Part shown: piece after piece, positions 3,007-61,532 of the stretch
Layout: each line of letters opens with the position of its first letter
Numbering within the stretch: the stretch's first letter is position 1
Assembly (NCBI GenBank): GCA_963732325.1
Contig: CAVSYZ010000003.1
Span: 31,079 to 95,078, forward strand
Length of the DNA: 64,000 nucleotides
Origin: an uncultured Acidobacteriota bacterium
GTDB taxonomy: Bacteria; Acidobacteriota; Terriglobia; Acidiferrales; UBA7541
Direction of reading: 5' to 3'
Position numbers and translations under genes: made by a program
The notes under the pieces: model-generated
What the model was told of the DNA's origin: nothing
Database searches by the model: none
Seen by the model: the letters and a program-made list of their open reading frames with translations, nothing else

Positions 3007-6000
3007 ATGAAGAGATTTTACATCGCTGCACTCTGCGCGCTTCTGTTCTCAGTTGCAGCTTCGGCGCAACAGCCCGACACAGACAAGTGGCGCAAGATTC
3101 CTCTAACCACAAATCCAACTCCGCATAAATCTCCACCCCCTGCTCCAAAGCCACCACCAGCCGACTACTCCCAGGAACCCTTCGTCATCGAGCAGTACCA
3201 CACCAGCGCGCGTTTTGAAAACGATGGCACCAGTGAACGCGATCTCGCCGTCCGCGTCCGCGTGCAAAGCGATGCCGGCGTGCAACAACTCGGCGAACTT
3301 GTCTTTGGTTACAACTCCGCGAATGAAGTAATGGACGTCCGCTTCGTGCGCGTGAAAAAGAAAGACGGCTCAGTCGTCACCGCCTCAGCCGACGCAGTGA
3401 AAGACATGACCGCCAGTGTCGCCCGCGATGCTCCCGAATACACCGACTACAAGGAAAAGCACGTCACCGTGCCCTCGCTCCATGCCGGCGACACCATCGA
3501 GTACGAAATCGCAACGCGCACCGTCACCGCGCTCGCGCCCGGAAATTTCTGGTTCGACTACGCCTTCGTCAAAGATGCGATCGTTCTCGACGAGCGTCTC
3601 GACGTCAATCTCCCGGCGGGCCGCGTGCACTATTTCCGCGTCGCGGCGCACCTGCAAGACGTGATCGACTACGCGGGCGATCGCGAAATTCACCACTGGC
3701 AGCACGCCAATCTCACGCGCCCATCCGAATCCCAGAAAACCAAGAATAAATCGCTGCCGCCCGCGGAACCTACGCCCGACGTGCAATTCACCACCTTCAC
3801 CTCGTGGGCTCAAGTCGCCGACTGGTACGCCAATCTTGAAAAAGGCCGCAGCGACCCCACCCCCGAAATCCGCATCAAGACTCAAGAGTTGATTCAAGGC
3901 CGCGCCACCGAGCTCGAAAAAATTGCCGCGCTCTACGATTACGTCGCAAAAAATATTCGCTACGTCAGCCTTTCCTTCGGCCTCGGCCGTTACCAGCCGC
4001 ATTCCGCCGCCGATGTTTTCAAAAATCAATACGGCGATTGCAAGGACAAGCACACTCTGCTCGCAGCCATGCTGCAAGCCGCGAACATCCCTTCCGACGC
4101 GGTCTTGATCCCCTTCGCGCGCAAACTCGATCTCGACGTTCCCTCGCCTTCGCAATTCGATCACATGATCACCGCCGTCCCCATCGGCGACGAATTAATC
4201 TGGATGGATTCCACCGCCGAAGTCGCGCCCTTCCGCCTGCTCTCCCCTCCGCTGCGCAGTAAGTCCGCTCTGCTCGTCGAACCCGATGGCGCCGGCAAAA
4301 TTGTCCAAACTCCGGTGGATCCCCCGTTCCTCTCCACGCAGCACGTCGAAATCGAAGCGCATGTAAACGATCTCGGCAAGCTAACCGCCACGCTGCGCTA
4401 TTTCCTCCGCGGCGACAACGAGTACGCTCTGCGCGTCGCGTTCCGCCGCACGCCTGAAACGCAATGGAAAGAACTTGGCCAGACCATCGCCGCGCTCGAT
4501 GGCATCAAAGGCGAAATCACCAATGTAAAACCGAGCGATCCCTCCGACACTGAAAAACCCTTCGAGCTCGATCTCGATTTCGCGCAAGCAAATTACCTCG
4601 ACTGGTCCAGCAAAAAATCCAAAGTCGGCGTCCCGCTCCTCGCCATCGGCTTGCCGGACGCGAACGAAGATTCCGCCGACCCTATCCATCTCGGCAGCCC
4701 GCTCGACGTCAACATGGACCTGAGAATGACGCTGCCCGACAATTTCTCGGCGCGCGCTCCGGTCGCTGTCTCGGTCGAACGCGACTACGCCGACTTTAAA
4801 TCCATCTATCATTTCGAAAACCACACGCTCACCGCGCAACGCTCCTTGAATTTCAAAATGCGCGAGCTCCCCGCCACGCGCGTCAGTGATTACCTCGCGT
4901 TCTCCCGCGCCGTCGAATCCGACGAAACCCAGCTACTCACCGTAGAAAATTCCACCACCGGCGCGCCCACCATTCCCACCACTGTCAGCGCCGACGAACT
5001 CCTCGAAGCCGGAATCGCCGCGCTCAACGCCGGAAATGTTCGCGAAGCCATTCCGCTGCTACAACACGCCGTCGAGATTGATCCTAAAAGCAAGCAGGGC
5101 TGGAACGATCTCGGCCTCGCCTACTTGCGCCTCGGCCAATTCGACGATGCCGCCGCCGCATTCCAGAAACAAATTTCGGCCAATCCCTACGACGAACACG
5201 TTTACAACTACCTTGGCCTCACGCTGCAGCAGCAGCAGAAATTTCCCGAAGCCGCCGACGCCTTCCGCAAACAGATCGCAGTAAATCCGCTCGATCCCGT
5301 AGCCCACGCCGCCCTGGGCGCGCTTTTCCTCGCGCAGCACAAATACTCGGAAGCCATTCCGGAACTCGACAAAGCCACCGTCCTCGCTCCAGACAACGCC
5401 GAACTTGAGGTCAGCCTCGGCCAGGCCCTCCTCAACACCGGAGAAAAAGATAAAGCGCTGGAAGCATTCGAAAAAGGTGTGGAACTATCGCAAACGCCCG
5501 TGGTGTGGAACAACGTCGCGTTCGCTCTCGCGGAGCACAATCTAGAACTCGACAAAGCCGCGCAATACGCGGAATCCGCAATCGCTGCCACCACCGCAAA
5601 TCTTCGCAATATCGTGCTCTCGCGCCTCTCGCTCGACGATCTCAATCAGGTCGCGAGCATCGGCGTTTACTGGGACACGCTCGGCTGGATCAATTTCCGC
5701 AAAGGCGATCTCGACCAGGCCGAACGTTACATCCGTGCCGCCTGGCTGCTCAATCAGCATGGCGAAGTCGGCGACCATCTCGCGCAAATCTATGAAAAAC
5801 GCGGAGACAAGCAACAAGCCGCCCGCATGTACGCCGAAGCCATCGCCGCCGCGCATTCCGTCCCCGAAACGCGCGCGCGCCTGATTGTTCTGCTCGGTGG
5901 CAACGCCGGAATTGACGAACTCGTCGCGAAAAATAAACCTGAGCTTACGAAATCTCGCGTTTTCCCAGCAGGAGATCTCTTGAAACAAAACGCCCGCGCC

Positions 6001-6243
6001 GATTTCTTCGTCCTGCTCTCACCCGGCGCAAGAAATCCGAAAGTCGAAGCAGTAAAATTCGTCAGCGGGAGTCAGGACCTGCGCCCGTTCGCAGAAAAAC
6101 TGCGCGCCCTGGAGTTCGGCCCCATGTTTCCCGACGCCTCGCCCGCAAAACTAGTCCGCCGCGGCACCCTGGCGTGCGCAGCCACAACAGGAAGCTGCAC
6201 CTTCACCCTGGCGCTCCCCGAAGACGTCCGCATCTTGAATTAA
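3007..6243 (+). CDS. Secreted DUF3857/transglutaminase-like domain protein with C-terminal TPR repeats
   Basis: 1078 aa with signal peptide MKRFYIAALCALLFSVAASAQQ. Transglutaminase-core motif QYGDCKDKHTLLAAML. The C-terminal third contains repeated TPR-like units (GWNDLGLAYLRLGQFDDAAAAFQKQI, YNYLGLTLQQQQKFPEAADAFRKQI, and others). Confidence 0.8.
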   Translation: MKRFYIAALCALLFSVAASAQQPDTDKWRKIPLTTNPTPHKSPPPAPKPPPADYSQEPFVIEQYHTSARFENDGTSERDLAVRVRVQSDAGVQQLGELVFGYNSANEVMDVRFVRVKKKDGSVVTASADAVKDMTASVARDAPEYTDYKEKHVTVPSLHAGDTIEYEIATRTVTALAPGNFWFDYAFVKDAIVLDERLDVNLPAGRVHYFRVAAHLQDVIDYAGDREIHHWQHANLTRPSESQKTKNKSLPPAEPTPDVQFTTFTSWAQVADWYANLEKGRSDPTPEIRIKTQELIQGRATELEKIAALYDYVAKNIRYVSLSFGLGRYQPHSAADVFKNQYGDCKDKHTLLAAMLQAANIPSDAVLIPFARKLDLDVPSPSQFDHMITAVPIGDELIWMDSTAEVAPFRLLSPPLRSKSALLVEPDGAGKIVQTPVDPPFLSTQHVEIEAHVNDLGKLTATLRYFLRGDNEYALRVAFRRTPETQWKELGQTIAALDGIKGEITNVKPSDPSDTEKPFELDLDFAQANYLDWSSKKSKVGVPLLAIGLPDANEDSADPIHLGSPLDVNMDLRMTLPDNFSARAPVAVSVERDYADFKSIYHFENHTLTAQRSLNFKMRELPATRVSDYLAFSRAVESDETQLLTVENSTTGAPTIPTTVSADELLEAGIAALNAGNVREAIPLLQHAVEIDPKSKQGWNDLGLAYLRLGQFDDAAAAFQKQISANPYDEHVYNYLGLTLQQQQKFPEAADAFRKQIAVNPLDPVAHAALGALFLAQHKYSEAIPELDKATVLAPDNAELEVSLGQALLNTGEKDKALEAFEKGVELSQTPVVWNNVAFALAEHNLELDKAAQYAESAIAATTANLRNIVLSRLSLDDLNQVASIGVYWDTLGWINFRKGDLDQAERYIRAAWLLNQHGEVGDHLAQIYEKRGDKQQAARMYAEAIAAAHSVPETRARLIVLLGGNAGIDELVAKNKPELTKSRVFPAGDLLKQNARADFFVLLSPGARNPKVEAVKFVSGSQDLRPFAEKLRALEFGPMFPDASPAKLVRRGTLACAATTGSCTFTLALPEDVRILN

Positions 6244-6308
6244 AACGCAGCGCCGCTGCATGGGAACGCCAATCTTCCGATTAGCGTTATTGCTTTGGAC
6301 TTTGGTTT

Positions 6309-6352
6309 TGTAGCGGCCGCCTGCTTTTTTAGGCGGGCGTCGTTGACTTTGA
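6309..6352. repeat. REP-like hairpin repeat, family 1 (GTAGCGGC-hairpin-CTTTGACTT), copy 1
   Basis: tgtagcggccgcctgcttttttaggcgggcgtcgttgactttga, with stem GCCGCCT/AGGCGG(G)C. It sits between convergent genes. The same element occurs at 11965, 18808 and 18868. Confidence 0.75.
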
Positions 6353-6436
6353 CCTCGATTTCTTCTCTGCAGAAATTCCAGATGAGGAATAAACGACAAC
6401 CAGGCAATCTCACAACTTCACCAAAAAAAACGCGCC

Positions 6437-7012
6437 CTACTTAATCTCCATCACTTCCTTCTCTTTCGCCGCCGACAAATCCTCGATCTTCTTAGTCTCC
6501 GAATGTGTCACCTTCTCCAACTCATCCAGCGATCTCTTCCGCTCATCCTCGCTGATCTTTTTTTCCTTCTCCAATTTCTCCACGCCTTCCTTGATGTCCC
6601 GCCGTATATTCCGTATCGCAGTCCGGTGATTTTCCAGCACCTTGTGAATGTGCTTCACCATGTCTTTGCGCCGGTCCTCGGTCAAAGCCGGAATCGGCAC
6701 GCGCACGACTTTCCCGTCATTCGTAGGATTCAATCCCAGATCCGTCAACCGTATCGCCTTGTCAATCAGTGCCACGGCCCCCGGATCCCATGGCGAAATC
6801 ACAATCGTCGAAGCGTCCGGCACATTCAACGTCCCCAGCTGATTGATCGGCATCGGCGTGCCGTGATAATCCACGCGCACGTGATCCAGCAGCGCCGTGT
6901 TCGCGCGCCCCGTGCGCACGCTCCCCAGCTCCTTGCGGAAATCTTCCACGGCTTTTTCCATGCGCGTTTTGGCTTGCGCCAATGCGTCTTTACTAGTGGC
7001 AATCACAGTCAT
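6437..7012 (-). CDS. frr: Ribosome recycling factor
   Basis: Homology starts at MTVIATSKDALAQAKTRMEKAVEDFRKELGSVRTGRAN (ATG 7012-7010). The track start at 7069 would overlap the pyrH stop. Conserved rpsB-tsf-pyrH-frr order. Confidence 0.93.
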   Translation of the reverse strand: MTVIATSKDALAQAKTRMEKAVEDFRKELGSVRTGRANTALLDHVRVDYHGTPMPINQLGTLNVPDASTIVISPWDPGAVALIDKAIRLTDLGLNPTNDGKVVRVPIPALTEDRRKDMVKHIHKVLENHRTAIRNIRRDIKEGVEKLEKEKKISEDERKRSLDELEKVTHSETKKIEDLSAAKEKEVMEIK

Positions 7013-16948: not shown

Positions 16949-18802
16949 ATGTCTACAACTATCTCTGAAATCCTAGGTCGCAAGCGAGAAACTATCGACA
17001 AGGCGGTCATCCGCTTCTGCGGTGACTCCGGTGACGGCATGCAAATCACCGGCAGCCAGTTTACCAATACCGTCGCCCTCTACGGCAACGACCTCGCCAC
17101 CTTCCCGGACTACCCCGCCGAAATCCGCGCCCCCGCCGGCACTTTGCCTGGTGTCAGCGGCTTCCAGGTCCATTTCTCCTCAAGCAACGTGTACACGCCC
17201 GGAGACAGCGTGGACGTACTGATCGCCATGAATCCCGCCGCGCTGAAAATGAACCTGGCGGACTTGAAAACGAACGGCATCCTCATCGTCAATTCCGATG
17301 ACTTTGGCGAAAGCGATCTGCGCAAGGCGCAAATCACCGTCAGCCCTCTCGAGGATCATTCGCTCGATGGCTATCGTCTTTTTGCTGTTCAACTCACCAA
17401 GCTCACCCGCGCCGCGCTAAAAGATGTCGGCCTGGACGCGAAGAGCATGGATCGCTGCAAGAATTTCTTCGCGCTGGGGATGTGTTACTGGCTTTACAAC
17501 CGTTCCATGGAGCCTACCCTCCGCTATCTAGACGACAAATTCAAGAGCAAGCCGCAGCTGGTAACCGCCAATAAACTGGCCATGCAGGCGGGCTATAGTT
17601 TCTGCGAAGCCACCGAGGCATTTCAGATCAGCTACGAAATTCCTCCGGCCAAGTTGTCACCCGGCACCTATCGCAATATCAGCGGCAACGCCGCGCTCGC
17701 GCTCGGATTCGTCGCCGCCTCGCAGCAGGCCGGAATCCCGCTATTCCTCGGCTCGTATCCCATCACACCGGCTTCCGACATTCTTCACGAACTCTCGATG
17801 TACAAGGACTTCGGCGTAACCACTTTCCAGGCCGAAGACGAAATCGCCGCCGTCTCTTCCGCCATCGGCGCCTCTTACACCGGCGCGCTGGCCATCACCA
17901 CCACATCCGGCCCCGGCATGGCGCTGAAAACCGAAGCGATTGGGCTGGCTGTTGCCGTCGAATTGCCGCTGGTGATTTGCGATATTCAGCGTGGCGGCCC
18001 ATCCACCGGACTTCCCACTAAAACCGAACAAGCCGATCTTCTCCAGGCCCTATACGGACGCAATTCCGAAGCTCCTGTCCCGGTGCTCGCTCCTTCTTCT
18101 CCCGGTGATTGTTTCTGGATTGCTATCGAAGCCAGCCGTATCGCCATCAAATACATGGTGCCCGTGATTATTCTCTCAGACGGCTACCTGGCTAACGGCG
18201 CGGAACCCTGGAAAGTTCCCACGGTTGCCGAGCTGCCGCAGATTCCCGTCGTCTTCGAAACGAATCCTGAAGGCTTTCTCCCGTACAAGCGCAATCCTTC
18301 CACCCTCGCGCGCCCCTGGGCTATTCCCGGCACTCCCGGCCTGGAACATCGCGTCGGCGGCATAGAAAAGCAGGACGTCACGGGCAACATCAACTATGAG
18401 CCGCTGAACCACGAACACATGGTTCGCACTCGCGCCGAAAAAGTTGAAGGCATCGCGCAAGATATTCCCGAAATCGTTCCCGAAGGCGATCAGTCCGGCG
18501 ACTTGCTAATCGTCGCCTGGGGCTCTACGGCCGGACCAATCACCGCCGCGATGAAACCCATGCGCGAAAAAGGCCATCGCATCGGCCACGTCCATCTGCG
18601 CTATCTGAATCCCCTGCCGCGCAATCTAGGCGACATTCTGAAGCGCTACAAAAAAGTTCTCGTCCCGGAAATGAACATGGGCCAGCTGTCCATGATCCTG
18701 CGCGCAAAATTCTTGGTAGACGCCGAAAGCTACGGCAAGATCCAGGGCAAGCCCTTCAAGCAATCAGAAATCGAAGCAAAAATCGAAGAGCTGCTCGACT
18801 AG
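16949..18802 (+). CDS. korA: 2-oxoacid:ferredoxin oxidoreductase, alpha(/gamma) subunit (2-oxoglutarate type likely)
   Basis: 617 aa. IRFCGDSGDGMQITGSQFTNT...FPDYPAEIRAPAGTLPGVSGFQVHF (gamma-like), then SYPITPASDILHEL and the TTSGPGMALK alpha domain. Confidence 0.85.
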   Translation: MSTTISEILGRKRETIDKAVIRFCGDSGDGMQITGSQFTNTVALYGNDLATFPDYPAEIRAPAGTLPGVSGFQVHFSSSNVYTPGDSVDVLIAMNPAALKMNLADLKTNGILIVNSDDFGESDLRKAQITVSPLEDHSLDGYRLFAVQLTKLTRAALKDVGLDAKSMDRCKNFFALGMCYWLYNRSMEPTLRYLDDKFKSKPQLVTANKLAMQAGYSFCEATEAFQISYEIPPAKLSPGTYRNISGNAALALGFVAASQQAGIPLFLGSYPITPASDILHELSMYKDFGVTTFQAEDEIAAVSSAIGASYTGALAITTTSGPGMALKTEAIGLAVAVELPLVICDIQRGGPSTGLPTKTEQADLLQALYGRNSEAPVPVLAPSSPGDCFWIAIEASRIAIKYMVPVIILSDGYLANGAEPWKVPTVAELPQIPVVFETNPEGFLPYKRNPSTLARPWAIPGTPGLEHRVGGIEKQDVTGNINYEPLNHEHMVRTRAEKVEGIAQDIPEIVPEGDQSGDLLIVAWGSTAGPITAAMKPMREKGHRIGHVHLRYLNPLPRNLGDILKRYKKVLVPEMNMGQLSMILRAKFLVDAESYGKIQGKPFKQSEIEAKIEELLD

Positions 18803-18807
18803 TTTTT

Positions 18808-18843
18808 CGTAGCGGCGGTCTTTAGACCGCCAGCCTTTGACTT
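18808..18843. repeat. REP-like hairpin repeat, family 1, copy 3 (korA-korB spacer)
   Basis: cgtagcggcggtctttagaccgccagcctttgactt, with a perfect 8-bp stem GGCGGTCT/AGACCGCC. Confidence 0.75.
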
Positions 18844-18867
18844 GTTTTTTGAGTTTGTGTTTGAATT

Positions 18868-18901
18868 TGTAGCGGCCGCCTTCAGGCGGGCGCCTTTGGG
18901 G
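18868..18901. repeat. REP-like hairpin repeat, family 1, copy 4 (korA-korB spacer)
   Basis: tgtagcggccgccttcaggcgggcgcctttgggg, in tandem with copy 3 and ending 10 nt before the korB ATG. Confidence 0.75.
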
Positions 18902-18911
18902 TGATCGAAAA

Positions 18912-19940
18912 ATGACCACGGCCACATTGCCGGTTTACACAAAAAAAGATTTCCAAACCGACCAGGAAATCCGCTGGTGCCCAGGCTGCGGCGACTACGC
19001 CATCCTCGCCGCCGTCCAGGCCGTCTTCGCCGAACTCGGCGTCCCCCGCGAAAAATTCGTCTTCATCTCCGGCATCGGCTGCTCCAGCCGCTTCCCGTAT
19101 TACATGAACACCTTCGGTTTCCACACCATCCACGGCCGCGCGCCCGCCATCGCCACCGGCGTAAAACTAATCCGTCCCGATCTCGACGTTTGGGTGGCTA
19201 CCGGCGACGGCGACTCGCTCTCCATCGGCGGCAACCACACCATTCACATGCTGCGCCGCAACGTCGGCCTCAAAGTCCTGATGTTCAACAATAAAATTTA
19301 CGGCCTCACCAAAGGCCAATACTCGCCCACCTCCGAAGTCGGTAAAAAGGCCAAGTCCACCCCCTTCGGTTCCGTGGATCGCCCGTTCAGCCCGCTCTCG
19401 CTCGCTCTGGGTTCCGAAGCCACCTTCATCGCGCGCTCCGTGGACGTCTTCCAGCAGCACCTGAAAGAAACCCTCAGAAAAGCCGCGGCGCATCAAGGTT
19501 CCGCCTACATCGAAATCCTGCAAAACTGCAATATTTTCAACGACGGAGCCTGGGAAACCATCACCGAAAAAGAAGCCCGCAGTGAACAAGTAGTCCAACT
19601 CGACCATGGCAAGCCCCTAATCTTCGGCAAGAATCGCAACAAAGGAATTCGCCTGGTAGGCCTGGATCTCGAAGTAGTCGCCCTGGGAAATGGCATCACC
19701 GAAAAAGATTTGCTGGTCCACGATGAACACAATCCAAATCCCGTCTATGCCTTCGCCCTTTCGCGCATGGATTCGATGCCCGGATTCCCCACTCCCATCG
19801 GCGTCCTCCGCGCCCTGCAAGGCGTTCCGCGCTACGAAGACCTGATCCAACAGCAAATCCGCGACGTGATCGCCAAAAAAGGCAAAGGCGACCTCGCCAA
19901 ACTCCTCCGCGCCGGAGACACCTGGGAACTGAAACAGTAA
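18912..19940 (+). CDS. korB: 2-oxoacid:ferredoxin oxidoreductase, beta subunit (TPP-binding)
   Basis: 342 aa. IRWCPGCGDYAILAAVQ and GIGCSSRFPYYMNTFGFHTIHGRAPAIATG...GDGDSLSIGGNH. Confidence 0.88.
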   Translation: MTTATLPVYTKKDFQTDQEIRWCPGCGDYAILAAVQAVFAELGVPREKFVFISGIGCSSRFPYYMNTFGFHTIHGRAPAIATGVKLIRPDLDVWVATGDGDSLSIGGNHTIHMLRRNVGLKVLMFNNKIYGLTKGQYSPTSEVGKKAKSTPFGSVDRPFSPLSLALGSEATFIARSVDVFQQHLKETLRKAAAHQGSAYIEILQNCNIFNDGAWETITEKEARSEQVVQLDHGKPLIFGKNRNKGIRLVGLDLEVVALGNGITEKDLLVHDEHNPNPVYAFALSRMDSMPGFPTPIGVLRALQGVPRYEDLIQQQIRDVIAKKGKGDLAKLLRAGDTWELKQ

Positions 19941-19959
19941 GCGGCCTGGTTCGCCGCCG

Positions 19960-21090
19960 TTATCGGATTTTTCTTTTTTTCCCGGTTGGATCGATCGGCG
20001 ACGAAGCCGTTTTCCAATCCACGCCAGCGGGCCTCTTCCCCACTCCCGCAACATACAAAACTCCTTCCGTCACTCCATCAATCCTCAAATCGCGATCAAT
20101 CTTCGAATCCGCCATCGCCATCGTGCAAAACGGCGCAAGCCCCAGCCAAGTCGCGACCAAACAAAACGTCTGGCACAAATGTCCCGCCTCCGCGAGCACC
20201 ACGCGATATGCCCGAGGATAGCGATACTTCCACTGCGTCCGCGTGAACACTCCGGTCATAAACACAAACGCAGCTGCTTCGGAAAACCACCGCTGCCCGA
20301 TCACATAATCCGACATCCGATCACGCGTCATCCCGCGCCTCAGCAATTCCAACCGGTGTCGCGTCGCATCGTAGTGATAAATCCCCGGAGAAATTCCTTC
20401 CACGTCCCGTGCCACCACATAAGCCTCAATCGGATGCAAAGCTCCGCCCGATGGAGAAGTCTTCACCGCGAATCGCCCGAGCGGTGGCACCGAAACCCAC
20501 TCGCGCACTCCCCATGTCAATCCCAGCAGCGTCGCCAAATCTGCAAGCGCAACTTTCCCTGCCGCAAATCTTCGCCACGTTCTCCGCGCCGTGAGCACGC
20601 GCGCGAATTCGCCCTCCATGCGCGGCGCAGGCAATACGGTCTGCGCGGCTCGCGCATAGTGTTTCACCGGCACAGGCATCGTCTCCTTCTGCGTCAACCC
20701 CTCCATGTAATGGCCGATTCTCACCAGGTCAGCTTCAAACGGAAGATCACGCCCCGTGAAGTGAAAAAACCCCGCGGCAGGATTCCAATCTTTCCACGCG
20801 TCCATCGCGCGTTCGGCGGCTTGAGACTTGCGGTCGGAGCGTTGCAGCAGCGAATGGCGCGCCAGTTCTTTAATCGCTTCGCGCAATGACGAAGCAGAAT
20901 ATTGCGGGAAGTGACGGAGAAGCGCCTCTGCAGAACGCCAGCGGCCGAAGAAGTCCAGTACTTCTGTCGCGATCGGCGCGGCTGTTGCGCCATCACCTGT
21001 CGCGTAGTTCTCGAAGATCAGTTCCGCATCGTTCCAGTAGGAAACCAAGAATGGAGACCGCCGGAACAGCACCTTTTTCGCTTTGGCCAT
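19960..21090 (-). CDS. SagB/ThcOx-type (nitroreductase-fold) dehydrogenase with PqqD/RRE-like N-terminal domain
   Basis: 376 aa. C-terminal half: RRTWRRFAAGKVALADLATLLGLTWGV, PSGGALHPIEAYVVARDVEGISPGIYHYD, LAEAGHLCQ (SagB-type pattern). N-terminal ~95 aa: LFRRSPFLVSYWNDAELIFENYATGDGATAAPIATEVLDFFGRWRSAEALLRHF..LREAIKELARHSLL fits the strand-strand-strand-helix-helix-helix PqqD-like pattern. Confidence 0.8.
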   Translation of the reverse strand: MAKAKKVLFRRSPFLVSYWNDAELIFENYATGDGATAAPIATEVLDFFGRWRSAEALLRHFPQYSASSLREAIKELARHSLLQRSDRKSQAAERAMDAWKDWNPAAGFFHFTGRDLPFEADLVRIGHYMEGLTQKETMPVPVKHYARAAQTVLPAPRMEGEFARVLTARRTWRRFAAGKVALADLATLLGLTWGVREWVSVPPLGRFAVKTSPSGGALHPIEAYVVARDVEGISPGIYHYDATRHRLELLRRGMTRDRMSDYVIGQRWFSEAAAFVFMTGVFTRTQWKYRYPRAYRVVLAEAGHLCQTFCLVATWLGLAPFCTMAMADSKIDRDLRIDGVTEGVLYVAGVGKRPAGVDWKTASSPIDPTGKKRKIR

Positions 21091-21144
21091 GCCAGATGCA
21101 ACGAGTCAAGGCGCGGAAGAGTTTATCGCGCTCACCGGAAAGCG

Positions 21145-21357
21145 TTACTTCGATTTGGTCCTGAACGTCTGCCCGTAGTGCAAGGTTGGTCGGCAGACAA
21201 CTCCAATGATCCCCTGCGCTCGCCTAAGGCTCCGCAAATTCAGATCAATCCTCTTCAGATCGGCCTTGACGACCTTGCTGCGCAACGCGCGCAGCTTTTT
21301 CTCGGCCTTGTCGATTTCCCTGGTAATGCTCTTCAACGTGAATTTAACGTTAGCCAT
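21145..21357 (-). CDS. Small basic peptide A (70 aa), candidate precursor peptide
   Basis: MANVKFTLKSITREIDKAEKKLRALRSKVVKADLKRIDLNLRSLRRAQGIIGVVCRPTLHYGQTFRTKSK. ATG is preceded by GGGAGGAG. Paralog of peptide B. It lies 54 nt upstream of the SagB-like gene. The track ORF 21145..21492 is over-extended. Confidence 0.65.
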   Translation of the reverse strand: MANVKFTLKSITREIDKAEKKLRALRSKVVKADLKRIDLNLRSLRRAQGIIGVVCRPTLHYGQTFRTKSK

Positions 21358-21413
21358 TCCGTTCTCCTCCCGAGCGGTGCTTCCTATTCGGTGACCAGCC
21401 CATGACCGCGCCT

Positions 21414-21653
21414 CTAGGTGCGACTCGCGGCCGAACGGCTCGACGTGGATTTGGTCCGGAAATATTGCCCGTAGTGGAAGATCGGCGGACAAATGTGCAC
21501 GAGGATCGCGCGCGCTTCCTTGAGGCCGCGCAAGTTCAAATCAATCTTCTTCACGTCGGCCTTGTCGACTTTTGGGCGCAGAGCACGCAGCTTTTTCTCC
21601 GCCTTCTCGATATCCCTGGTAATGTTCTTCAGCGTGAAGCTGATTTTGGCCAT
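21414..21653 (-). CDS. Small basic peptide B (79 aa), candidate precursor peptide
   Basis: MAKISFTLKNITRDIEKAEKKLRALRPKVDKADVKKIDLNLRGLKEARAILVHICPPIFHYGQYFRTKSTSSRSAASRT. ATG is preceded by TGAGGAG. 46 of 70 aligned positions are identical to peptide A. Confidence 0.65.
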   Translation of the reverse strand: MAKISFTLKNITRDIEKAEKKLRALRPKVDKADVKKIDLNLRGLKEARAILVHICPPIFHYGQYFRTKSTSSRSAASRT

Positions 21654-21736
21654 ACGATTCTCCTCAAGCAACGAACTGCGACCTTCATTAATTGGTAAAC
21701 TCGGCCGATTCCGGAAGAAGTACGGGGAACCGCGAA

Positions 21737-21765
21737 AGTGTAGTTCACGCCCGTCACAGCGTCAA
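21737..21765 (-). promoter_or_regulatory. Predicted sigma70 promoter of the peptide-peptide-SagB operon
   Basis: Minus strand reads TTGACG (21765-21760), a 17-nt spacer, then TACACT (21742-21737). This gives a leader of about 77 nt before peptide B. Confidence 0.45.
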
Positions 21766-21862: not shown

Positions 21863-24286
21863 CTAACGCTGCGCATTTCCATTTTCCGGCGCGTAAGGCA
21901 ATCCGATTCGCCGCACCAGCGCCGCAAATCGCGGATCGGAATGTAAGCTGGCAAATCGCGGATGCACGGCAAGGTTGATCAGCCGAACCGAGCGTTCGTC
22001 GTATGCTTTCTCCATCCACTGGAACGCTTCGTCGTTCTGGTCCAAACCCACGTAAACGAGTGCGATGCTGTAAGGCGAAACATATTGCCGCGAAGACAGC
22101 TGCAGGAGGTCGTCCAAAATCCCCAGCGCCTCAACTTTCTTTCCTGCCACGGCGTAGGCGTTCCCCAGCTCGGCCTTGAATGAAGTCTCGTTTCCAGAAA
22201 GCGCCAGCGCCTGCTGCAATTCTCGCAGCGCACTCGCATATTCGCGCTGCGCCAAATATGCCTGCCCGAGACATCCGTGAGCGACCGCGAAGCTGGGATC
22301 CATCGCTACAGTCTTCTGCGCTTGCGCGACAGCCTCGTCGTTCCTGCCGGCAAGATAATAGACCCAGGACAGGTTGGCGTTGATTATCAGCGAGCGCGGG
22401 TCCAGTTCTTGCGCCAGCTTCATTTCCGAAATCGCTTCGTCGCTTCTGCCCGCGGATGCCAGCGCCAGCGCATACCAGTGGTGACTATTCGCATCACCCG
22501 GATTCAACTCAATCGCGCGCTTGAATTCATCCAGCACACCGGGCCATTCCAGCCGGTAAGCACGGATCTGTCCCAGCACGGCGTGTGCGGAAGCCAGATT
22601 GTCGTCCAACTGCAACGCCTTCACCGCCGCAGCTTCGGCCTCTGGCAGCACTTGCGAGGACGGCACATCCTTGTAATCCGCCGCCAGCGTCAGCGCTCCT
22701 GCTAGCCCCGCATACGACGGCGCATATGTAGGATCGAGCTGAATTGCCTGGCGATAATCAGAGACGGCTTGCGTCACACTCTCGCCGGTGCGTTTCGCAA
22801 CGTAGTAATTCCCTTGCAGGTACGCGTCATACGCGGCTGGAACCACTGTGCGCGTTTTCGCCAGGCGCTCTTGCTCTGGCTCGGTCAGCTGAATCTGAAT
22901 TTGCGTGACGATGTCGCGCGCCACATCGCTTTGCAGCGCCAAAATATCCGTGACGGTGCGTTCGTAACTATGCGCCCAAAGATTCTGGCCTGTTTGCGGC
23001 TGCACCAATTCGGCGGAAATGCGCACGCGATCGTCGGACCGCAGCACCGAGCCTTCCACGAGCGCGTCGACTCCCAATTCTTGCGCGATCTGCGCGGGGC
23101 TCTCGTGCTTGTCCTTGTATTGCATTACCGATGTGCGCGAGATCACCCGCAATTTCTTGATCTGCGAAAGCTCGGTGATCAGCGCGTCGCACATTCCATC
23201 CGCGAAATAATCCTGCTTGGGGTCGCCCGTTAGATTTTCCAGCGGCAGCACGGCCAAGGACTGAATGGACGTCGCGCCCACGGCCGGCGAGCCGCGCCAC
23301 TTCACCTCGACGAGCTTCCACACAAACGCCGTGATCAGCAGTAACGCCGCCACAGCCGATGCGGCCAGCACCGCGCGGCCGAAGCGCGAGTGACGGGCTG
23401 CTGGCGGCACCAGGATCGCGGACGGTTGAATCGCGCTCGCCGGAATCACAGCCGAATTCGTGCGCAAGGCCTCTAATGCTGCGCGAATTTCGCTCGCGTG
23501 CTGATAACGCTGTGCCGGCTCCTTCGCCAAGCAGTGCTCGATCACCGAACGCAATCCCAGCGGCACGTTTTCCCGCAACGGCGGCGGTGAATCGTGCAGA
23601 ATCATCGAGCTCAATTCGTACGAAGTTCTTCCGCGGAACGGCCGCTTGCCGTTCGCCATTTCATACAGCACCACGCCCAGCGCCCACACATCGCTGCGCG
23701 CATCCGCCGGCTCGCCGCGAAATAACTCCGGCGCCATGTAATGCATCGTCCCCACAATCGCGCCTTCCGAGGTGAGCGTACTGATGGATTGCGTCTGGAG
23801 CGTGATCTCGCCGGGAGTCATGTGCTTCGCCAGGCCGAAATCGAGCACCTTGATGCGGCCTCCGGGCATCACGATGACGTTCGGAGTTTTCAAATCACGG
23901 TGAATCACACCGCGTTCGTGCGCGTGCGCCATGGCGTCCGCGATTTGCTCGCCGTAGCGAATCACCGTCTCGACGGGCAGCCCATCTTCCGGGATTTGTT
24001 CCGCCAGAGAACGCCCGCTGACGAATTCCATGACGATGTAGCTTTTGCCGGCCTCTTCGCCGACGTCGTAAATCGTGCAAATATTGGGATGGTTCAGCGC
24101 GGAAGCGGTGCGCGCCTCGCGAATCAAAAGCGCGCGCGCGTTTTCGTCGTGATTGAGTTCGTCAGGCAGGAATTTCAGAGCAACATCGCGGTTCAGCCGG
24201 TCATCATGCGCGCGATAGACCACGCCCATCCCACCGGCGCCGACTTTTTCGACGATTCGGTAATGCGAGACGGTCTGGTCGCTCAC
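21863..24286 (-). CDS. Ser/Thr protein kinase with TM segment, periplasmic-type linker domain and C-terminal TPR repeats
   Basis: Kinase motifs GAGGMGVVYRA, VALKFL, HRDLKTPNV, DFGLAK, APE. TM segment AVLAASAVAALLLITAFVW. TPR-like repeats at the C-terminus. GTG at 24286 is preferred because the track ATG (24352) lies upstream of the predicted promoter. Confidence 0.88.
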   Translation of the reverse strand: MSDQTVSHYRIVEKVGAGGMGVVYRAHDDRLNRDVALKFLPDELNHDENARALLIREARTASALNHPNICTIYDVGEEAGKSYIVMEFVSGRSLAEQIPEDGLPVETVIRYGEQIADAMAHAHERGVIHRDLKTPNVIVMPGGRIKVLDFGLAKHMTPGEITLQTQSISTLTSEGAIVGTMHYMAPELFRGEPADARSDVWALGVVLYEMANGKRPFRGRTSYELSSMILHDSPPPLRENVPLGLRSVIEHCLAKEPAQRYQHASEIRAALEALRTNSAVIPASAIQPSAILVPPAARHSRFGRAVLAASAVAALLLITAFVWKLVEVKWRGSPAVGATSIQSLAVLPLENLTGDPKQDYFADGMCDALITELSQIKKLRVISRTSVMQYKDKHESPAQIAQELGVDALVEGSVLRSDDRVRISAELVQPQTGQNLWAHSYERTVTDILALQSDVARDIVTQIQIQLTEPEQERLAKTRTVVPAAYDAYLQGNYYVAKRTGESVTQAVSDYRQAIQLDPTYAPSYAGLAGALTLAADYKDVPSSQVLPEAEAAAVKALQLDDNLASAHAVLGQIRAYRLEWPGVLDEFKRAIELNPGDANSHHWYALALASAGRSDEAISEMKLAQELDPRSLIINANLSWVYYLAGRNDEAVAQAQKTVAMDPSFAVAHGCLGQAYLAQREYASALRELQQALALSGNETSFKAELGNAYAVAGKKVEALGILDDLLQLSSRQYVSPYSIALVYVGLDQNDEAFQWMEKAYDERSVRLINLAVHPRFASLHSDPRFAALVRRIGLPYAPENGNAQR

Positions 24287-24309
24287 GTGTGGACAACGCT
24301 CAAGCGAGC

Positions 24310-24339
24310 ATCTTAGGCCGCAGCAGAAACCCAAGTCAA
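24310..24339 (-). promoter_or_regulatory. Predicted promoter of kinase 1 (paralogous to the 27118-27146 promoter)
   Basis: Minus strand reads cgTTGACTtg, an 18-nt spacer, then TAAGATg. The same cgTTGACTtg...ccTAAGATg framework occurs upstream of kinase 2. Confidence 0.45.
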
Positions 24340-24616
24340 CGCGGAAGCCCAACGCGGTTTCGCGTTCTTGGCAGGTTCTAACTGGCGAATTCGCTTATTC
24401 TAAACCTGAACAACGCCCGGTGCTGCACGTTGAGGCGAAACCTCTGATCAGCGAGGTTACGGCAGGGACGAAATTCACTTGGAGCACAAGTGTGGTCTCG
24501 CGACCCACCAAGCAAGTCAATTTGATTGGAGAAAAATGCACAATTCGTCAGCATCCAAAACCGTGCGGCGCATTGGCCATGGATTGTGAGCACGACCCTA
24601 GGTGACCGGGCCGAAC

Positions 24617-27109
24617 CTATAGCGGGAGGCCGAGCTTCTGCAATAGCGCGGGCCAGCGCGAGTCGGACTTCAGGTGGTCAAGCGCTGGGAAGCGAATGAC
24701 CGCGGTGATTTCGTCGTCCCGATCCGCTAAGGCTTTTTCGAGATTCTCGAACGCCTTGTCGTGATTTCCTGTCAGAGCATAGGCAACGGCAGCGTTCGCG
24801 GGCATCTTACCGTCGCTAATAGCATCCATGAATTCAGCATAACCTTTCGCGTCCGGGGTCCACGAACGCGTGGACAGCGCGTCGCCCGGCGGACCCGCTT
24901 TCTGCAACGTGCTCACGGCCTCGGCAAACCGGCCCTGCGTGGCCTGCATCTGAGATAGATAGAAGAGGCCCGGACCAAAGCCAGGGTCACGCTGGAAGAT
25001 CTGATCGAACTGGTCTTGGGCTTGGGGATACTGGTGAGCGTCCATCAGGCTGAGAGCGTAGTTCGTCTTGACGATCGCCGCGAGCGGATCGAGAGCCAGC
25101 GCGAGGCGGAACTGCTGGAGCGCTTCTTCGAGTTGGTTCATCGGCATCAGATAATTGAACGCATAAAAATAATGAGCGTTCGCGTTATTTGGACTCAGTT
25201 CGATCGCGCGGCGAAACTCCAGCCCCACAGCGCTCCATTTCCAAGCGGCGGCCAGCGCATTGCCACGCGCCACGTGCGCGTCAGAGCTGGAATCGTCCAG
25301 CTCGATCGCTTTTTGGGAGGCTTGATCCGCTAATGCCAAGGATTGGTCTGGCGGAATCAAGCGGCCGTAACCCGCGGCGACCACATAGCTATTCGCAAGC
25401 CCTGCCCAGGCCAGCGCGTAATTCGGATCGGCGGCGACCGCCTGGCGGAATAACTCGACACTCTTGAGGATTCCCGGTTTCGTGCGCCCGTACAATTGCT
25501 GCTGCGCCTCAAGGTAGAGGCGATAGGCGTCGGGGTTCGTGGTGCCGGCGCTGCCCATTTTTACCTCAGCGCTGCCGGTCGCATTTACGCGTAATTTCTT
25601 CGCGACGTCGCGGGTAATGTCACTCTGCACCTGCGTGACGTCAGCCATCTTGCGTTCGTAGTGGTTGCCCCACATTTCCGAGCCGTCGGCGGTGCTGACG
25701 AGGTCCGCTTGCACTGCGACTGTATCGCCGTGCTGTGTGACACGACCCATCAGCACCGAGCCGACGTTGAGGTCCTTGCCGATTTGTTGCGGGTCATCTT
25801 CCTTGCCCTTGAAGCGGAAGACGGTGCTGCGCGCCATCACTTTGACGTCGGGCAGTTGCGAAAGCGTGCCGATCAGGCTTTCGGTGAGGCCGTCGCTTAG
25901 ATATTCGTTGCTGGGATCTGAGGTGGCGTTCACGAATGGCAGCACGGCGATGGAATTGACTTTTTCGGCGGGCGAGCGGCCGTGCAGGAAGTAATAGCCG
26001 CCGGCGATGACGAGAGCGAGCGCTGCAGCGACAGCGCCGCCGATCCAAAGTTTGCGCGACGCGCCGACATGCACAGCGGGCACCGTCGTGGAACCGGAGG
26101 ATGGTTGCGTTGGCGATGTGGCACTGGCGGCGCTAGCACCAGCCGCTGCAGACACACTACCCGATAAGGCGGTAGACGCATCGCTGACGTGCGTCGAGCG
26201 CCCGGAATCCTGTTCGCGCTTCAGCCGCGCGAGGTCCGCGCGAACGTCGGCGGCGGTCTGATAGCGCAGGTTACGGTCCTTCTCCAATGCCTTGTTAATG
26301 ATGCGCTCGAGCTCCGCCGGCGTTTCGGGATTCAGCCGCACGGGAGCCGCCACCGCGCCATCCAGGATCGCTTTGAAAATCACGCCGGAGGTTTCGCCGC
26401 GGAAAGGCAGCGCACCGGTGGCCATTTCGTAGAGCACGGCGCCGAAGGAGAAAAGGTCGGAGCGACAATCGAGTTCCTTGCCGCGAACCTGCTCGGGCGA
26501 CATGTAAGCAACGGTGCCCATGGTGCTGCCGGGGCTGGTGAGATGCTCGGCGGAGGCACCCAAGGTGGCGCCCTCGGTGGTGTCCACGGGCATTTTGGAG
26601 GCGGAAGAGCCCGCGGCGGTGAAGGTTACCTTGGCGAGACCAAAATCAAGAATTTTGGCGTGGCCGCGTTTGGTGACAAAAATATTCGCGGGCTTGATGT
26701 CGCGGTGAATGATGTGTTCGGCGTGCGCAGCGTCGAGCGCATCGGCGATTTCGATAGCGAGAGTGAGGAGGTCTTCGATATCCACGGGGCGGCCGTTGAT
26801 GCGGTGCTTAAGCGTCTGCCCATCGAGAAATTCCATGGCGATGAAGGCGTGGCCATCCTGCTCGCCGATATCGTAAATCGTGCAGATGTTGGGATGGTTC
26901 AGGGCGGAGGCGGCTTGGGCTTCACGCTGGAATCGCGCGAGAGCCTGCGGATCGCCGGCGACGTCCTCCGGCAGAAATTTCAGTGCGACGAAGCGCTTCA
27001 GGCGCGAGTCTTCGGCCTTGTAAACGACACCCATGCCTCCGCCGCCGAGCTTTTCGATGATGCGGTAGTGTGAGAAGGCCTGCCCGATTGGAGACGGCGT
27101 GTCCAGCAT
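24617..27109 (-). CDS. Ser/Thr protein kinase with TM segment and C-terminal TPR repeats (paralog of 21863..24286)
   Basis: 830 aa. [37 protein letters not shown] segment [24 protein letters not shown]-like C-terminus. Confidence 0.9.
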
Positions 27110-59067: not shown

Positions 59068-61521
59068 CTACGATCCCCGGTACAACTCGAACGGCGCCCA
59101 ATAGAATGGCCGACGATAGACGCCGCCGGAATGTAGAAGCGCCAGTTTCGCGTCGCGCAAGGCCGCATCCGGCGGGACACCCTTGCCGATTTCGGAATAC
59201 AGATGGTCCATCAGCTGCGGCGTGGAATTATCGTTCACTTCCCATAGCGCGGCGATCACGCCATGCGCGCCGGCGCGCAAGAATGCCCAGGACAAACCGA
59301 CCAGGCCCTCCCCTGAATAAGTGCGCACGCCCTCGCCGTGGCACGCGGATATCGTGACCAGGTCGGCATGCAGAGGATGCTGAATGATGTCGCGGGCGTA
59401 GAGTTTGTAATCGTCTCCTTGCTTGGAAAGAATTACGGCCGAATCGAGCGGGCTGGTGCGGCTCGCCGTGCCGTGCGCTACAAAATGAATGTTGGAAAAA
59501 TCGGCGGGCTGGCTCTTCAGATACGAATCGGGCGTCGCCTCCGCGCCGGAAAAAACCGTGCGCTCGGCCGCGGGGAAATAATTCTCGATCCCCGTCATTT
59601 CCGCCGCGGCCTGCGGCAATTTCGGAAATTCCGCGTCCGGCGAAACGGGATCGCCCACTAGCAAAAGTTTCTTTGCAGCAGCCGCGTGCCGCGAAGCCCC
59701 AGCCGCCAGCAGCGTCAAAGAATTGGCGTACGATACGTCCACATCCTCAATCCAGTAATGCAATTCCGGCGCAGGCGCCAGCAAAGTCTCGAAATTCAAT
59801 CCATACAGGCTGCCATCCGGCAATATCGTGACCCGCGCCCCCTTCGGAATCATTTTCGCAGCCGGCGCCACCAACAAATCATAAAGCTTCCGCCCCGCCG
59901 CATTCTGCGTCTCCAACACGTCGCGCGACCCCAGCAGCGCCTGCCGGTAAGCCTGCACCAACGGATCAATCTCCTTCGCCGGCGGCAAACTGAAAAGCTG
60001 CACCCGCTCCGGCCTGATCACCCACACATACGAATGTTCTCCTCCCAGCCAGTAGGAGAGAATCGTAGCGTTCAAGCGTTTCGCAATTTGGCGAGGATTG
60101 AAGTCCTTTATTGGAAAGCCGGCGGAAGTGGAGTTGATGCCAAGCCCTTCGGCTAAAGTTCGCGCTCGACTCACTTCGGCCACCTGCAGCGCGTCCTTTG
60201 TTCTCCGATGCGAAACCAGAAAATCGGCATAATCGCCGTAGAGGTCTATCGAATCAGATAGGACTGACAAACGAGAATCTGCCCGCCGCAGCGACGATCG
60301 AGAAGATTCAATCGTCGCCATTGCATTTCGGAACTGTACCTCGGCATCCGCCGCTCGATTTTCGGCCGCAAAGACATTGGCAAGACCCGCTTGCGCATAC
60401 CACAGAAGGGATCGGTCGTCGCTGTCTTCCCGAATCACCGTGAGAAAGTCGGACTCTGCTCGATGGAAGTCCTCTCTTCCCGTTGCGATGTGGGCTTCCG
60501 TGAAAAGCGAATAGAGTTCTGGCAGGCGATCGTCGGTCGCATGTTCCAAAGCCAGCGCTTCGCGATTATGTTGCTCCGCTTCGTCATATCGCTTGCCGGT
60601 AAGGTCCACGACTGCAAGATTGCTCAGGCACACTGCCGTCATGGCCTTGTTCTCTAGTCTTTTCGCGATGTCCAGGGCCTGCTTGAAATTCTGCGCTGCC
60701 GCTGTGTAAGAATGTTGGTCATACTCAATCGAACCGATGTTCATCAGCCAGATCATAATGTCTTTATCCACGTGCAATTCGATCGCAACGGCCTTTGCAT
60801 CCGCAAGCAGGGAAAGAGCTCGCTCGAAATCTCCCATCTTGTAATAACTCCGCGCCAGGTTTCCAGTGACCTTTTCCGTCGCAATTCGGGCTTGGAGATT
60901 ATGAGAAAGATCCAGAGCTTGCATGTTCCAGTCAATTGATTCGTCGAAGCGTTGCTGGGTCATGGAAACGTACCCAAGGCTGCCAAGAGCCTTGAGCATT
61001 AGGAATGTCTGATTTTTCTCTCGGGCAAGTTGGAGGGACTTGCGATAGGCAATTTCAGCGGAAGGAAGGTCACCGCGTGCTACGGCCAAGTTACCGCGGC
61101 TCAAAACGACTTCGCCCATCAGGTCGGACCTGCTCGACTGCGCGAGGCGCTCCGCTTCGTCAACATGCCGATCCGCGTCATCCGATTCCTGCAATGCAGA
61201 GTCGGCAAGGCCTCGCAGAATCTCACGGTGCACAGCGATGTCGCCGCTGCGGAATGCCGCGGGTAATTCCGGATCTAAGAGTTGGAGTGCGTCTCTGTCC
61301 AAGCCGCGCCAAACGAGGACTTCCGCGTCAAGCATCCGAAAACGCAACGCCCAATCTTCGTCGCGCCCGCTGAACCGCTTGTATGCGGCGTCGGATTCGT
61401 TGAACGCGCCCACGAGGTCGCCGTGCTGAAACTTTTGCTGCGCATCTTGGTAAACTGCCGCGGGCTGCCGGGTTAGTGCCGTCCCCCCGCAACCCGAAAC
61501 TCCCAGAACCCAGCACAACAA
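59068..61521 (-). CDS. TPR-repeat CHAT-domain (caspase-like) protease; 5' end ambiguous (track start 61770 is a TTG overlapping the upstream gene by 238 nt)
   Basis: C-terminal CHAT domain: LLLVGDPV...NIHFVAHGTAS (catalytic His) and DLVTISACHGEG (catalytic Cys). There are 8 or more TPR-like repeats in the middle. A hydrophobic N-terminal segment LVLLCWVLGVSGCGG carries a lipobox-like VSGC. Confidence 0.8.
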   Translation of the reverse strand: MLCWVLGVSGCGGTALTRQPAAVYQDAQQKFQHGDLVGAFNESDAAYKRFSGRDEDWALRFRMLDAEVLVWRGLDRDALQLLDPELPAAFRSGDIAVHREILRGLADSALQESDDADRHVDEAERLAQSSRSDLMGEVVLSRGNLAVARGDLPSAEIAYRKSLQLAREKNQTFLMLKALGSLGYVSMTQQRFDESIDWNMQALDLSHNLQARIATEKVTGNLARSYYKMGDFERALSLLADAKAVAIELHVDKDIMIWLMNIGSIEYDQHSYTAAAQNFKQALDIAKRLENKAMTAVCLSNLAVVDLTGKRYDEAEQHNREALALEHATDDRLPELYSLFTEAHIATGREDFHRAESDFLTVIREDSDDRSLLWYAQAGLANVFAAENRAADAEVQFRNAMATIESSRSSLRRADSRLSVLSDSIDLYGDYADFLVSHRRTKDALQVAEVSRARTLAEGLGINSTSAGFPIKDFNPRQIAKRLNATILSYWLGGEHSYVWVIRPERVQLFSLPPAKEIDPLVQAYRQALLGSRDVLETQNAAGRKLYDLLVAPAAKMIPKGARVTILPDGSLYGLNFETLLAPAPELHYWIEDVDVSYANSLTLLAAGASRHAAAAKKLLLVGDPVSPDAEFPKLPQAAAEMTGIENYFPAAERTVFSGAEATPDSYLKSQPADFSNIHFVAHGTASRTSPLDSAVILSKQGDDYKLYARDIIQHPLHADLVTISACHGEGVRTYSGEGLVGLSWAFLRAGAHGVIAALWEVNDNSTPQLMDHLYSEIGKGVPPDAALRDAKLALLHSGGVYRRPFYWAPFELYRGS

Positions 61522-61532
61522 GACTAAATCTA

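Follow-up and report, generated by a model that had tools for sequence, protein, structure and literature searches.

What is understood of SagB-type dehydrogenases concerns almost exclusively the oxidation of azolines to azoles, a step downstream of a YcaO cyclodehydratase. The cyanobactin oxidase ThcOx carries two domains resembling the RiPP recognition element (RRE; RiPP, a peptide synthesized ribosomally and modified post-translationally), acts on thiazolines made by YcaO, and belongs to cyanobactin clusters that also encode the PatA/PatG proteases. SagB-type genes without sagC and sagD partners have been noted before, TfxB of trifolitoxin being one of them, and so have RRE-fused SagB oxidases, as in ThcOx itself. 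The present analysis concerns a locus in 64,000 nucleotides of DNA from an uncultured Acidobacteriota bacterium of the Acidiferrales (GenBank assembly GCA_963732325.1, contig CAVSYZ010000003.1, positions 31,079 to 95,078), which as a whole is called the window and is numbered from its first nucleotide. On its minus strand, a gene for a Hanks-type Ser/Thr kinase is followed by two genes for small proteins and by a gene for an enzyme in which an RRE-like domain precedes a SagB-type flavin mononucleotide (FMN) dehydrogenase domain. A first-pass annotation of this DNA had drawn attention to the two small open reading frames (ORFs), their Shine-Dalgarno sites, a pair of promoter hexamers and the enzyme gene, and all of these were found in place. 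We read the locus, with moderate confidence, as a three-component Acidobacteriota module in which a kinase-coupled, RiPP-like substrate-enzyme pair dehydrogenates its substrate near a Cys. The module probably makes a modified peptide by a chemistry yet to be described.

The enzyme and its small-protein partners

The enzyme gene (21090-19960, (-)) encodes 376 amino acids (aa), and its SagB/ThcOx-type FMN dehydrogenase domain occupies residues ~160-355 (20026..20613, (-)), as delimited by Pfam, TIGR03605 and a PDB profile. That the protein is of SagB/ThcOx type, as had been claimed, was borne out by the SagB domain model TIGR03605, which it matched with 123.8 bits against a cutoff of 78.4. The Pfam Nitroreductase family (PF00881) was matched at residues 167-352 (E 1.4e-15; 58.3 bits, cutoff 23.5) and was the sole significant family in the Pfam scan of the 376-aa protein, the GntR and CNP_C_terminal matches being weak and sub-threshold. 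The best-scoring specific NCBIfam model was TIGR04511 (SagB_rel_DH_2; residues 66-355, E 3.1e-59), but the score of 200.9 bits fell below the curated cutoff of 240, so that the enzyme is not a member of that family. The RRxxR motif for FMN binding is present as RRTWRRF (R169, R173), and both of these residues, together with Tyr289, are invariant in 46 homologs of 30-62% identity. A profile built from 32 homologs matched 3EO7, ThcOx/CyaGox, McbC and BmdC in the PDB, and in this alignment Lys288-Tyr289 sits on Lys201-Tyr202 of McbC. In McbC-type enzymes, the Lys-Tyr pair abstracts the alpha proton, and the hydride passes to FMN (PMC6395948). Judged by sequence, therefore, the FMN and Lys-Tyr catalytic motifs of the enzyme are intact.

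A structural model of the whole protein was of modest quality (pLDDT 63.5), its best fold matches being ThcOx and BmdC, with 3EO7 and McbC also matched, and for this reason the N-terminal domain was remodelled alone. The resulting AlphaFold model of residues 1-95 had a pLDDT of 88.5, with strands at 8-11, 15-20, 23-28 and 33-36 and helices at 39-47, 54-60 and 66-78; the predicted fold, a three-stranded sheet followed by three helices, is like that of known RREs. The RRE-like domain was accordingly placed at residues 8-85 (20836..21069, (-)) from the model and from Foldseek, which returned RREs almost exclusively (TMq 0.5-0.7), namely those of TigE, TbiB1 with its leader, lasso B1, CteB, PbtF, TbtB, MibB, TruD, LynD, MccB, ThcOx and PqqD. 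Considering that the best E-value was a modest 6e-4, it is the uniformity of this list on which the case for an RRE rests. The RRE-SagB architecture is widespread, since many of the 622 proteins that matched the enzyme at E <1e-30 among 1.84 billion representative proteins span residues 8-360.

Upstream of the enzyme gene lie the two small ORFs, delimited from the ORF list, the sequence, family alignments and a family hidden Markov model (HMM). ORF1 encodes 79 aa (21653-21414, (-)) and is preceded by the Shine-Dalgarno sequence GAGGAG (21665-21660, (-)); ORF2 encodes 70 aa (21357-21145, (-)) and is preceded by GGAGGAG (21370-21364, (-)). Alignment of the two proteins gave 66% identity (46 of 70 residues), exactly the degree of paralogy that had been counted by hand. 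In both, a leader-like block of residues 1-54 is followed by Cys55 and a tail, which is of the CPP type in ORF1 (PPIFHYGQYFRTKS; family HMM E 1.1e-38) and of the CRP type in ORF2 (RPTLHYGQTFRTKSK). ORF1 then continues for 9 residues (..KSTSSRSAASRT, 21414-21440, (-)), and it is to be noted that this C-terminal extension is missing from orthologs such as that of locus L026, which ends in ..FRSKAK. The order of the two copies in the window, CPP type and then CRP type, is reversed in loci L001 and L007.

Homologs of ORF2 fell into 26 protein clusters, most of them without an organism name and the named ones from metagenome-assembled genomes (MAGs) of Candidatus Acidiferrales; the exact protein encoded by ORF2 was encountered on 36 contigs, which come from MAGs named Candidatus Acidiferrales by NCBI. 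When 31 diverse members were combined in a profile, it matched 123 clusters, nearly all annotated as hypothetical and none with a Pfam domain. Overall, the small-protein family, which is unannotated, comprises more than 200 unique sequences of like length and layout. In 51 ortholog comparisons, the differences at codon positions 1, 2 and 3 numbered 848, 601 and 1341, respectively, an excess at the third position, and 765 of the 1877 differing codons were synonymous. On the evidence of these clusters and of the codon-position pattern, the small ORFs are real genes. One could regard them as chance frames or as an untranslated leader of the SagB mRNA, considering that they are short and that their relatives are mostly annotated as hypothetical; however, the size and uniformity of the family, the third-position excess, the Shine-Dalgarno site before both ORFs, and a protein conservation that survives where the flanking DNA has diverged refute this at the sequence level, and we give it practically no credence.

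No known family could be assigned to the small proteins. Scans of both window proteins against Pfam, NCBIfam and PHROGs found no family match, the Pfam and NCBIfam scans of the 31 diverse members gave no consistent match, with scattered coiled-coil-like noise only, and a PDB search with the family profile yielded no meaningful match. A known family was thus rejected as an identity for them, including the known non-RiPP family that would have contradicted the first-pass annotation.

What the family does share is a Cys at position 51-60, found in 220 of 224 unique sequences. It is preceded by a conserved Lys/Arg-rich region, which opens with a segment resembling V-[ST]-L-K-x-I; most members have Ser or Thr at the N-terminal strand position. 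The tail that follows the Cys has a median length of 14 aa; a second Cys was found in 0 of 218 tails, whereas an aromatic residue stands at +2 to +14 from the Cys in 206 of them. In the family alignment, the leader is conserved family-wide and the tail within subfamilies only. Two tail classes are large, namely C[RP]P..[YF]GQxF, to which the window proteins belong (84 tails), and C..M[STN]xx[FY] (85 tails); a third, CPKGKPxY, has 15 tails, and the other classes often end in a hydrophobic-Pro motif. The leader-plus-core layout proposed earlier is therefore retained, but its boundary lies at the Cys and not where it had been drawn. The terminal HYGQxFRTKS, described as invariant from the two window copies, is conserved within one subfamily only, the family-wide feature being the single Cys (Cys55 of ORF2). 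Likewise, the 'divergent hydrophobic middle' that was said to hold this Cys is found upstream of it, within the conserved leader-like block, of whose second predicted helix it is probably a part. The gene organization is thus that of RiPP systems, in which a precursor whose leader is conserved and whose core varies is encoded next to its modifying enzyme.

Conservation of the pair was examined in the best 80 of 571 relatives of the enzyme, from a scan of one genome per species. All 80 loci are from Acidobacteriota (Acidiferrales, Acidoferrum, Vicinamibacteria, Terriglobales and Korobacteraceae), with an enzyme identity of 48-89%. When the small-protein HMM was run against the six-frame ORFs of these loci, nearly all of them turned out to have a family member of 60-90 aa directly 5' of SagB and in the same orientation; about 30 contain two such copies in tandem, and in some another copy lies downstream in convergent orientation. 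Reverse look-ups that started from distant small proteins recovered this arrangement, set in differing flanking contexts, and on metagenome contigs the small protein persists 5' of SagB at an enzyme identity of 37-46%. Thus, the co-conservation of small ORFs with SagB-like genes, which had been put forward as a check, does extend across Acidobacteriota.

Several individual loci depart from this arrangement. In L048, L055, L058, L061, L062 and L066 (~6130-6610, (-)), a family member with the tail CKTAPKMNAFF... lies, besides the upstream copy, convergent and directly downstream of SagB. L041 has a frameshift in the second small ORF after ~17 codons (4742-5128) and a SagB gene split into two ORFs (5001-6134), and in L015 the first small ORF runs on into an unrelated tail (4311-4694); both look like decay events. 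Among more distant relatives, L099 (1972-4311; 41% enzyme identity) has a gene for a MacB/FtsX exporter after the SagB gene, the two being flanked by two family-type small ORFs. In L093 (6001-8361) and L094 (6001-8353), at 31-35% identity, an MFS_3 transporter is either part of the enzyme as a fusion or encoded next after it, and neither locus showed a kinase. The exporters hint at a secreted product in these distant branches. Upstream of the L093 enzyme are genes for a methyltransferase and a LuxR-like regulator, as well as for a protein of 62 aa that seems to have a signal peptide.

The receptor kinase and the proposed mechanism

To the pair of small protein and enzyme, a third component has to be added that the first-pass annotation had overlooked. 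When all ORFs of at least 110 aa from the 80 loci were clustered, only one other family was ubiquitous, a kinase of ~800 aa that adjoins SagB in 79 of the 80 loci. In the window this is K1 (21863..24352, (-); Hanks-type Ser/Thr kinase by Pfam and synteny, exact start codon uncertain), in which a kinase domain (residues 31-284; Pfam Pkinase, 1.8e-53) is followed by one transmembrane helix (residues ~327-345, hydrophobic peak AVLAASAVAALLLITAFVW) and an extracytoplasmic region that ends in TPR repeats, matched by TPR families. The usual order is kinase, small ORF(s) and SagB on one strand; in about ten of the 80 loci the kinase is convergent and lies directly downstream of SagB. The distant loci L101 and L104 also have an upstream kinase with TPR repeats. 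In L102 (19-2403), the upstream kinase has a PD40 (WD40-like) beta-propeller ectodomain in place of TPR.

Two explanations of this linkage were considered and rejected. First of all, any acidobacterial kinase might do. In the window, a second kinase with transmembrane and TPR regions, K2 (24617-27109, (-)), lies directly upstream of K1; its identity to the SagB-linked kinases is 30-36%, whereas that of K1 is 40-93% over the full length and falls in step with SagB identity. K1 thus belongs to an orthologous group distinct from K2. Secondly, the kinase could simply be part of a larger block of conserved synteny. However, the other neighbors, i.e., the 2-oxoacid:ferredoxin oxidoreductase (OFOR), VTT/DedA, M23 peptidase, penicillin-binding protein (PBP) and RecA genes, recur in only ~30 close relatives, and the adjacency of the kinase survives its move to the convergent side. 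What is conserved, then, is a tightly co-inherited unit made up of the kinase, the small protein(s) and RRE-SagB. To our knowledge, this would be the first tight genetic link of a Hanks-type kinase to a RiPP-like enzyme-substrate pair.

The usual partners of a SagB enzyme were sought in the same data. The 22 largest window ORFs are housekeeping or unrelated genes and included no candidate for a YcaO, E1-like, LanB/C or radical SAM protein or for a protease; in the 80 loci, taken with 5-kb flanks, the kinase is the one further gene family that recurs, and hence no YcaO-type partner family does. The reported absence of a cyclodehydratase is upheld to this extent, and so is the statement that the putative cores are not rich in Cys, Ser and Thr, as those of thiazole/oxazole-modified microcins (TOMMs) are, considering the single Cys per tail. 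Since no cyclodehydratase accompanies the module, oxidation of an azoline to an azole is unlikely. It could still take place if a YcaO encoded elsewhere in the genome made a thiazoline from the single Cys, which the SagB enzyme then oxidized to a thiazole; the Cys is, after all, the one family-wide conserved residue of the substrate-like protein, and the Lys-Tyr pair is the same as that used in azoline oxidation. We nonetheless consider such a split pathway very unlikely, given the lack of a YcaO in the window ORFs and loci just described, a tail with one Cys, and an enzyme that matched a single specific SagB-related subfamily model, TIGR04511, and scored below its cutoff. A defense-system identity was also rejected, as PADLOC returned no match for the SagB protein or the two small proteins, and for K1 nothing but generic kinase-domain matches.

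The kinase gives more weight to a different alternative, namely that the module serves signaling and not biosynthesis. The small protein would then serve the receptor kinase as a stable partner or as a phospho-substrate, docking of a protein would be the task of the RRE-like domain, the FMN domain would act as a redox sensor or small-molecule enzyme, and the peptide would never be matured. The kinase is the sole other gene that always accompanies the pair, it is of the receptor type (a transmembrane helix and a TPR ectodomain, or PD40 in L102), and most small proteins offer a Ser or Thr at the N-terminal strand position; moreover, the module lies among housekeeping genes, its tails are under strong purifying selection, the acidobacterial loci lack a protease or exporter, and in BmdC the binding partner of the RRE-like domain is a protein and not a leader peptide. 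On the other side, the enzyme retains the full catalytic set of peptide azoline dehydrogenases; a conserved leader, a tail that varies by subfamily and tandem paralogs with differing tails make up the pattern of RiPP precursors; and the distant relatives couple the same two genes to exporters in place of the kinase. In our judgment this alternative is rather doubtful.

For the favored reading, that of a RiPP-like pair coupled to a kinase, the following mechanism may be proposed. The RRE would dock the conserved N-terminal part of the small protein, the docking site being the beta-strand-like V-[ST]-L-K-x-I segment with the helical hairpin that follows. The FMN domain would then remove two hydrogens from the ~14-residue tail, at or near the invariant Cys. 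As to the chemistry, one may speculate about a C-alpha/C-beta dehydrogenation of a tail residue, e.g., the conserved aromatic at +2 to +14 from the Cys, or else about an oxidation of the Cys itself; addition of the Cys thiol might come next and close a small thioether ring. A dehydro-aromatic residue trapped by the Cys thiol is a conjecture, although it would account for both conserved features of the tail. The kinase, for its part, might phosphorylate the peptide or the enzyme and in this way gate maturation; alternatively, it might sense the product through its outward-facing TPR domain.

A number of observations weigh against this reading. The N-terminal RRE that had been claimed is recognized by its predicted fold only, i.e., by the domain-only model and the RRE-dominated Foldseek list, while a match at the level of sequence profiles was not obtained: the Pfam scan of the 376-aa protein gave no PqqD or RRE model at E <= 1, and the PDB profile search with residues 1-95 gave one weak match, to a transcriptional regulator (E 0.42). 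RRE-like domains, moreover, also mediate protein-protein contacts, as that of BmdC does with its nonribosomal peptide synthetase (NRPS). No leader protease or exporter recurs in the 80 acidobacterial loci, a few family members lack the Cys (e.g., that of L076), and the thioether and dehydro-residue chemistry is speculative. Lastly, tails strongly conserved within clades and a location among housekeeping genes (recA, PBP, OFOR) are atypical of antibiotic RiPP clusters. The RiPP-like interpretation of the first-pass annotation is supported by the SagB score, the RRE fold and the conserved adjacency, while its 'RiPP' part is something we infer from sequence.

With regard to function, the co-inherited receptor kinase makes a signaling role just as plausible as an antibiotic one, and the housekeeping location, the clade-conserved tails and the fact that the acidobacterial module lacks a protease or exporter, taken together, point to a signaling or physiological role rather than an antibiotic one. 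A more far-reaching proposal is that of a self-contained peptide signaling circuit, in which the RRE-guided dehydrogenase alone, with no cyclodehydratase, radical SAM enzyme or dehydratase, would install a dehydro residue or a Cys-to-aromatic thioether, and the kinase would either sense the mature peptide through its TPR ectodomain, as the receptor of an autocrine ligand, or gate its maturation by phosphorylating the RRE-binding leader strand. We regard this as unlikely; if true, it would be a circuit of a kind not described in bacteria.

No description of the precursor family, the enzyme subfamily or the kinase linkage was found in Pfam, NCBIfam, PADLOC or the searchable literature, and should both the proposed chemistry and the proposed kinase coupling hold, the module could turn out to be new as a category. 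Here is a family, hundreds strong, that keeps the catalytic residues and the docking domain of SagB enzymes while the partner has been lost or was never present, and solving its product would define a new reaction for the class. Acidobacteria are abundant in soil and poorly cultured, and they have a very large complement of kinases, the functions of which, like the peptide products of these bacteria, are largely unknown. The module offers a handle on both, and its three genes suffice for a test in a heterologous host.

Promoter and surrounding genes

Between K1 and ORF1 lies the promoter-like sequence TTGACG-17 nt-TACACT (21765-21737, (-)), 5' of the small ORFs, which was evaluated by consensus scan and by conservation. 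By itself the match is not significant, as one was observed where 0.8 were expected in shuffled sequence. However, alignment of the intergenic region between kinase and small ORF from 16 related loci revealed that the -35 box (CTTGAC) and the -10 box (ACTACACT) are invariant and that their spacing is kept, while the intergenic DNA around them has otherwise diverged. It is this conservation, and not the consensus match, that supports the promoter call, and the small ORFs and the SagB gene are thus predicted to have a conserved promoter of their own. In the same 16 loci, two stretches past the -10 box, in the 5' untranslated region of ORF1 (21680-21736, (-)), are partly conserved, namely TTCGC(G/C)GTTC and CGGAATCGGCC..AGTTT(A/T)CCAAT; the DNA upstream, unlike these stretches, is not. 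They may represent an operator, or else an element in a leader RNA.

At the other end, the SagB gene converges with the genes for a two-subunit OFOR (617 and 342 aa; 16949-19940, (+)). The two stop codons are 19 bp apart, and a GC-rich hairpin between the SagB and OFOR beta stops (19940..19958, (-)), a weak match in the terminator scan, is a possible terminator. The OFOR neighbor is kept in close relatives only. Two large genes elsewhere in the window are unrelated to the module; they encode a 900-aa TPR and CHAT (caspase-like) protein (59068-61770, (-)) and a protein of 1078 aa in which DUF3857 and a transglutaminase core are combined with TPR repeats (3007-6243, (+)).

Comparison with known systems

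ThcOx/CyaGox (PDB 5LQ4, 8PZ5) is the best whole-protein fold match of the enzyme (E 1e-15) and shares with it an RRE-type N-terminus fused to a SagB-type FMN dehydrogenase as well as the W-K-Y motif. In contrast to the ThcOx system, the module described here has one RRE, a kinase partner and a different precursor family, and no heterocyclase or protease was found with it. The TOMM dehydrogenases McbC, SagB and BcerB belong to the same FMN domain family (TIGR03605) and have the aligned catalytic Lys-Tyr, but they work with an E1-like/YcaO cyclodehydratase on Cys/Ser/Thr-rich cores, neither of which was found for this module. As for TIGR04511, annotated as 'putative peptide maturation dehydrogenase', the enzyme is sub-cutoff and the small proteins match no NCBIfam model.

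Two systems resemble the module in other respects. In class III/IV lanthipeptide synthetases, too, a Ser/Thr kinase fold is tied to a ribosomal peptide that contains Cys and Ser/Thr. Those kinases, however, are soluble and fused to lyase and cyclase domains, whereas K1 is a membrane receptor kinase composed of Pkinase, transmembrane and TPR regions only, with no lyase or LanC domain. Cyclodipeptide oxidases are nitroreductase-fold enzymes that introduce C-alpha/C-beta double bonds into peptide-derived substrates (PMC10557607). One of these, AlbA/AlbB, gave a weak fold match to the present enzyme and is a precedent for the chemistry only, as it differs in having two subunits (AlbB, PF19585), filaments, diketopiperazine substrates and no RRE.

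Lastly, a SagB-type gene without YcaO had been noticed before in cluster OS3 of Pseudomonas sp. Os17 (Os1348-1351), where the gene for an 85-aa protein lies near that of the SagB-type enzyme in a genome without sagA, sagC and sagD (PMC7726476), and its chemistry is likewise unsolved. The OS3 cluster differs from the acidobacterial module in that its precursor is of the 'Frankia peptide' family, its partners are a GNAT protein and an HEXXH peptidase, its dehydrogenase has 650 aa, and it has no kinase.

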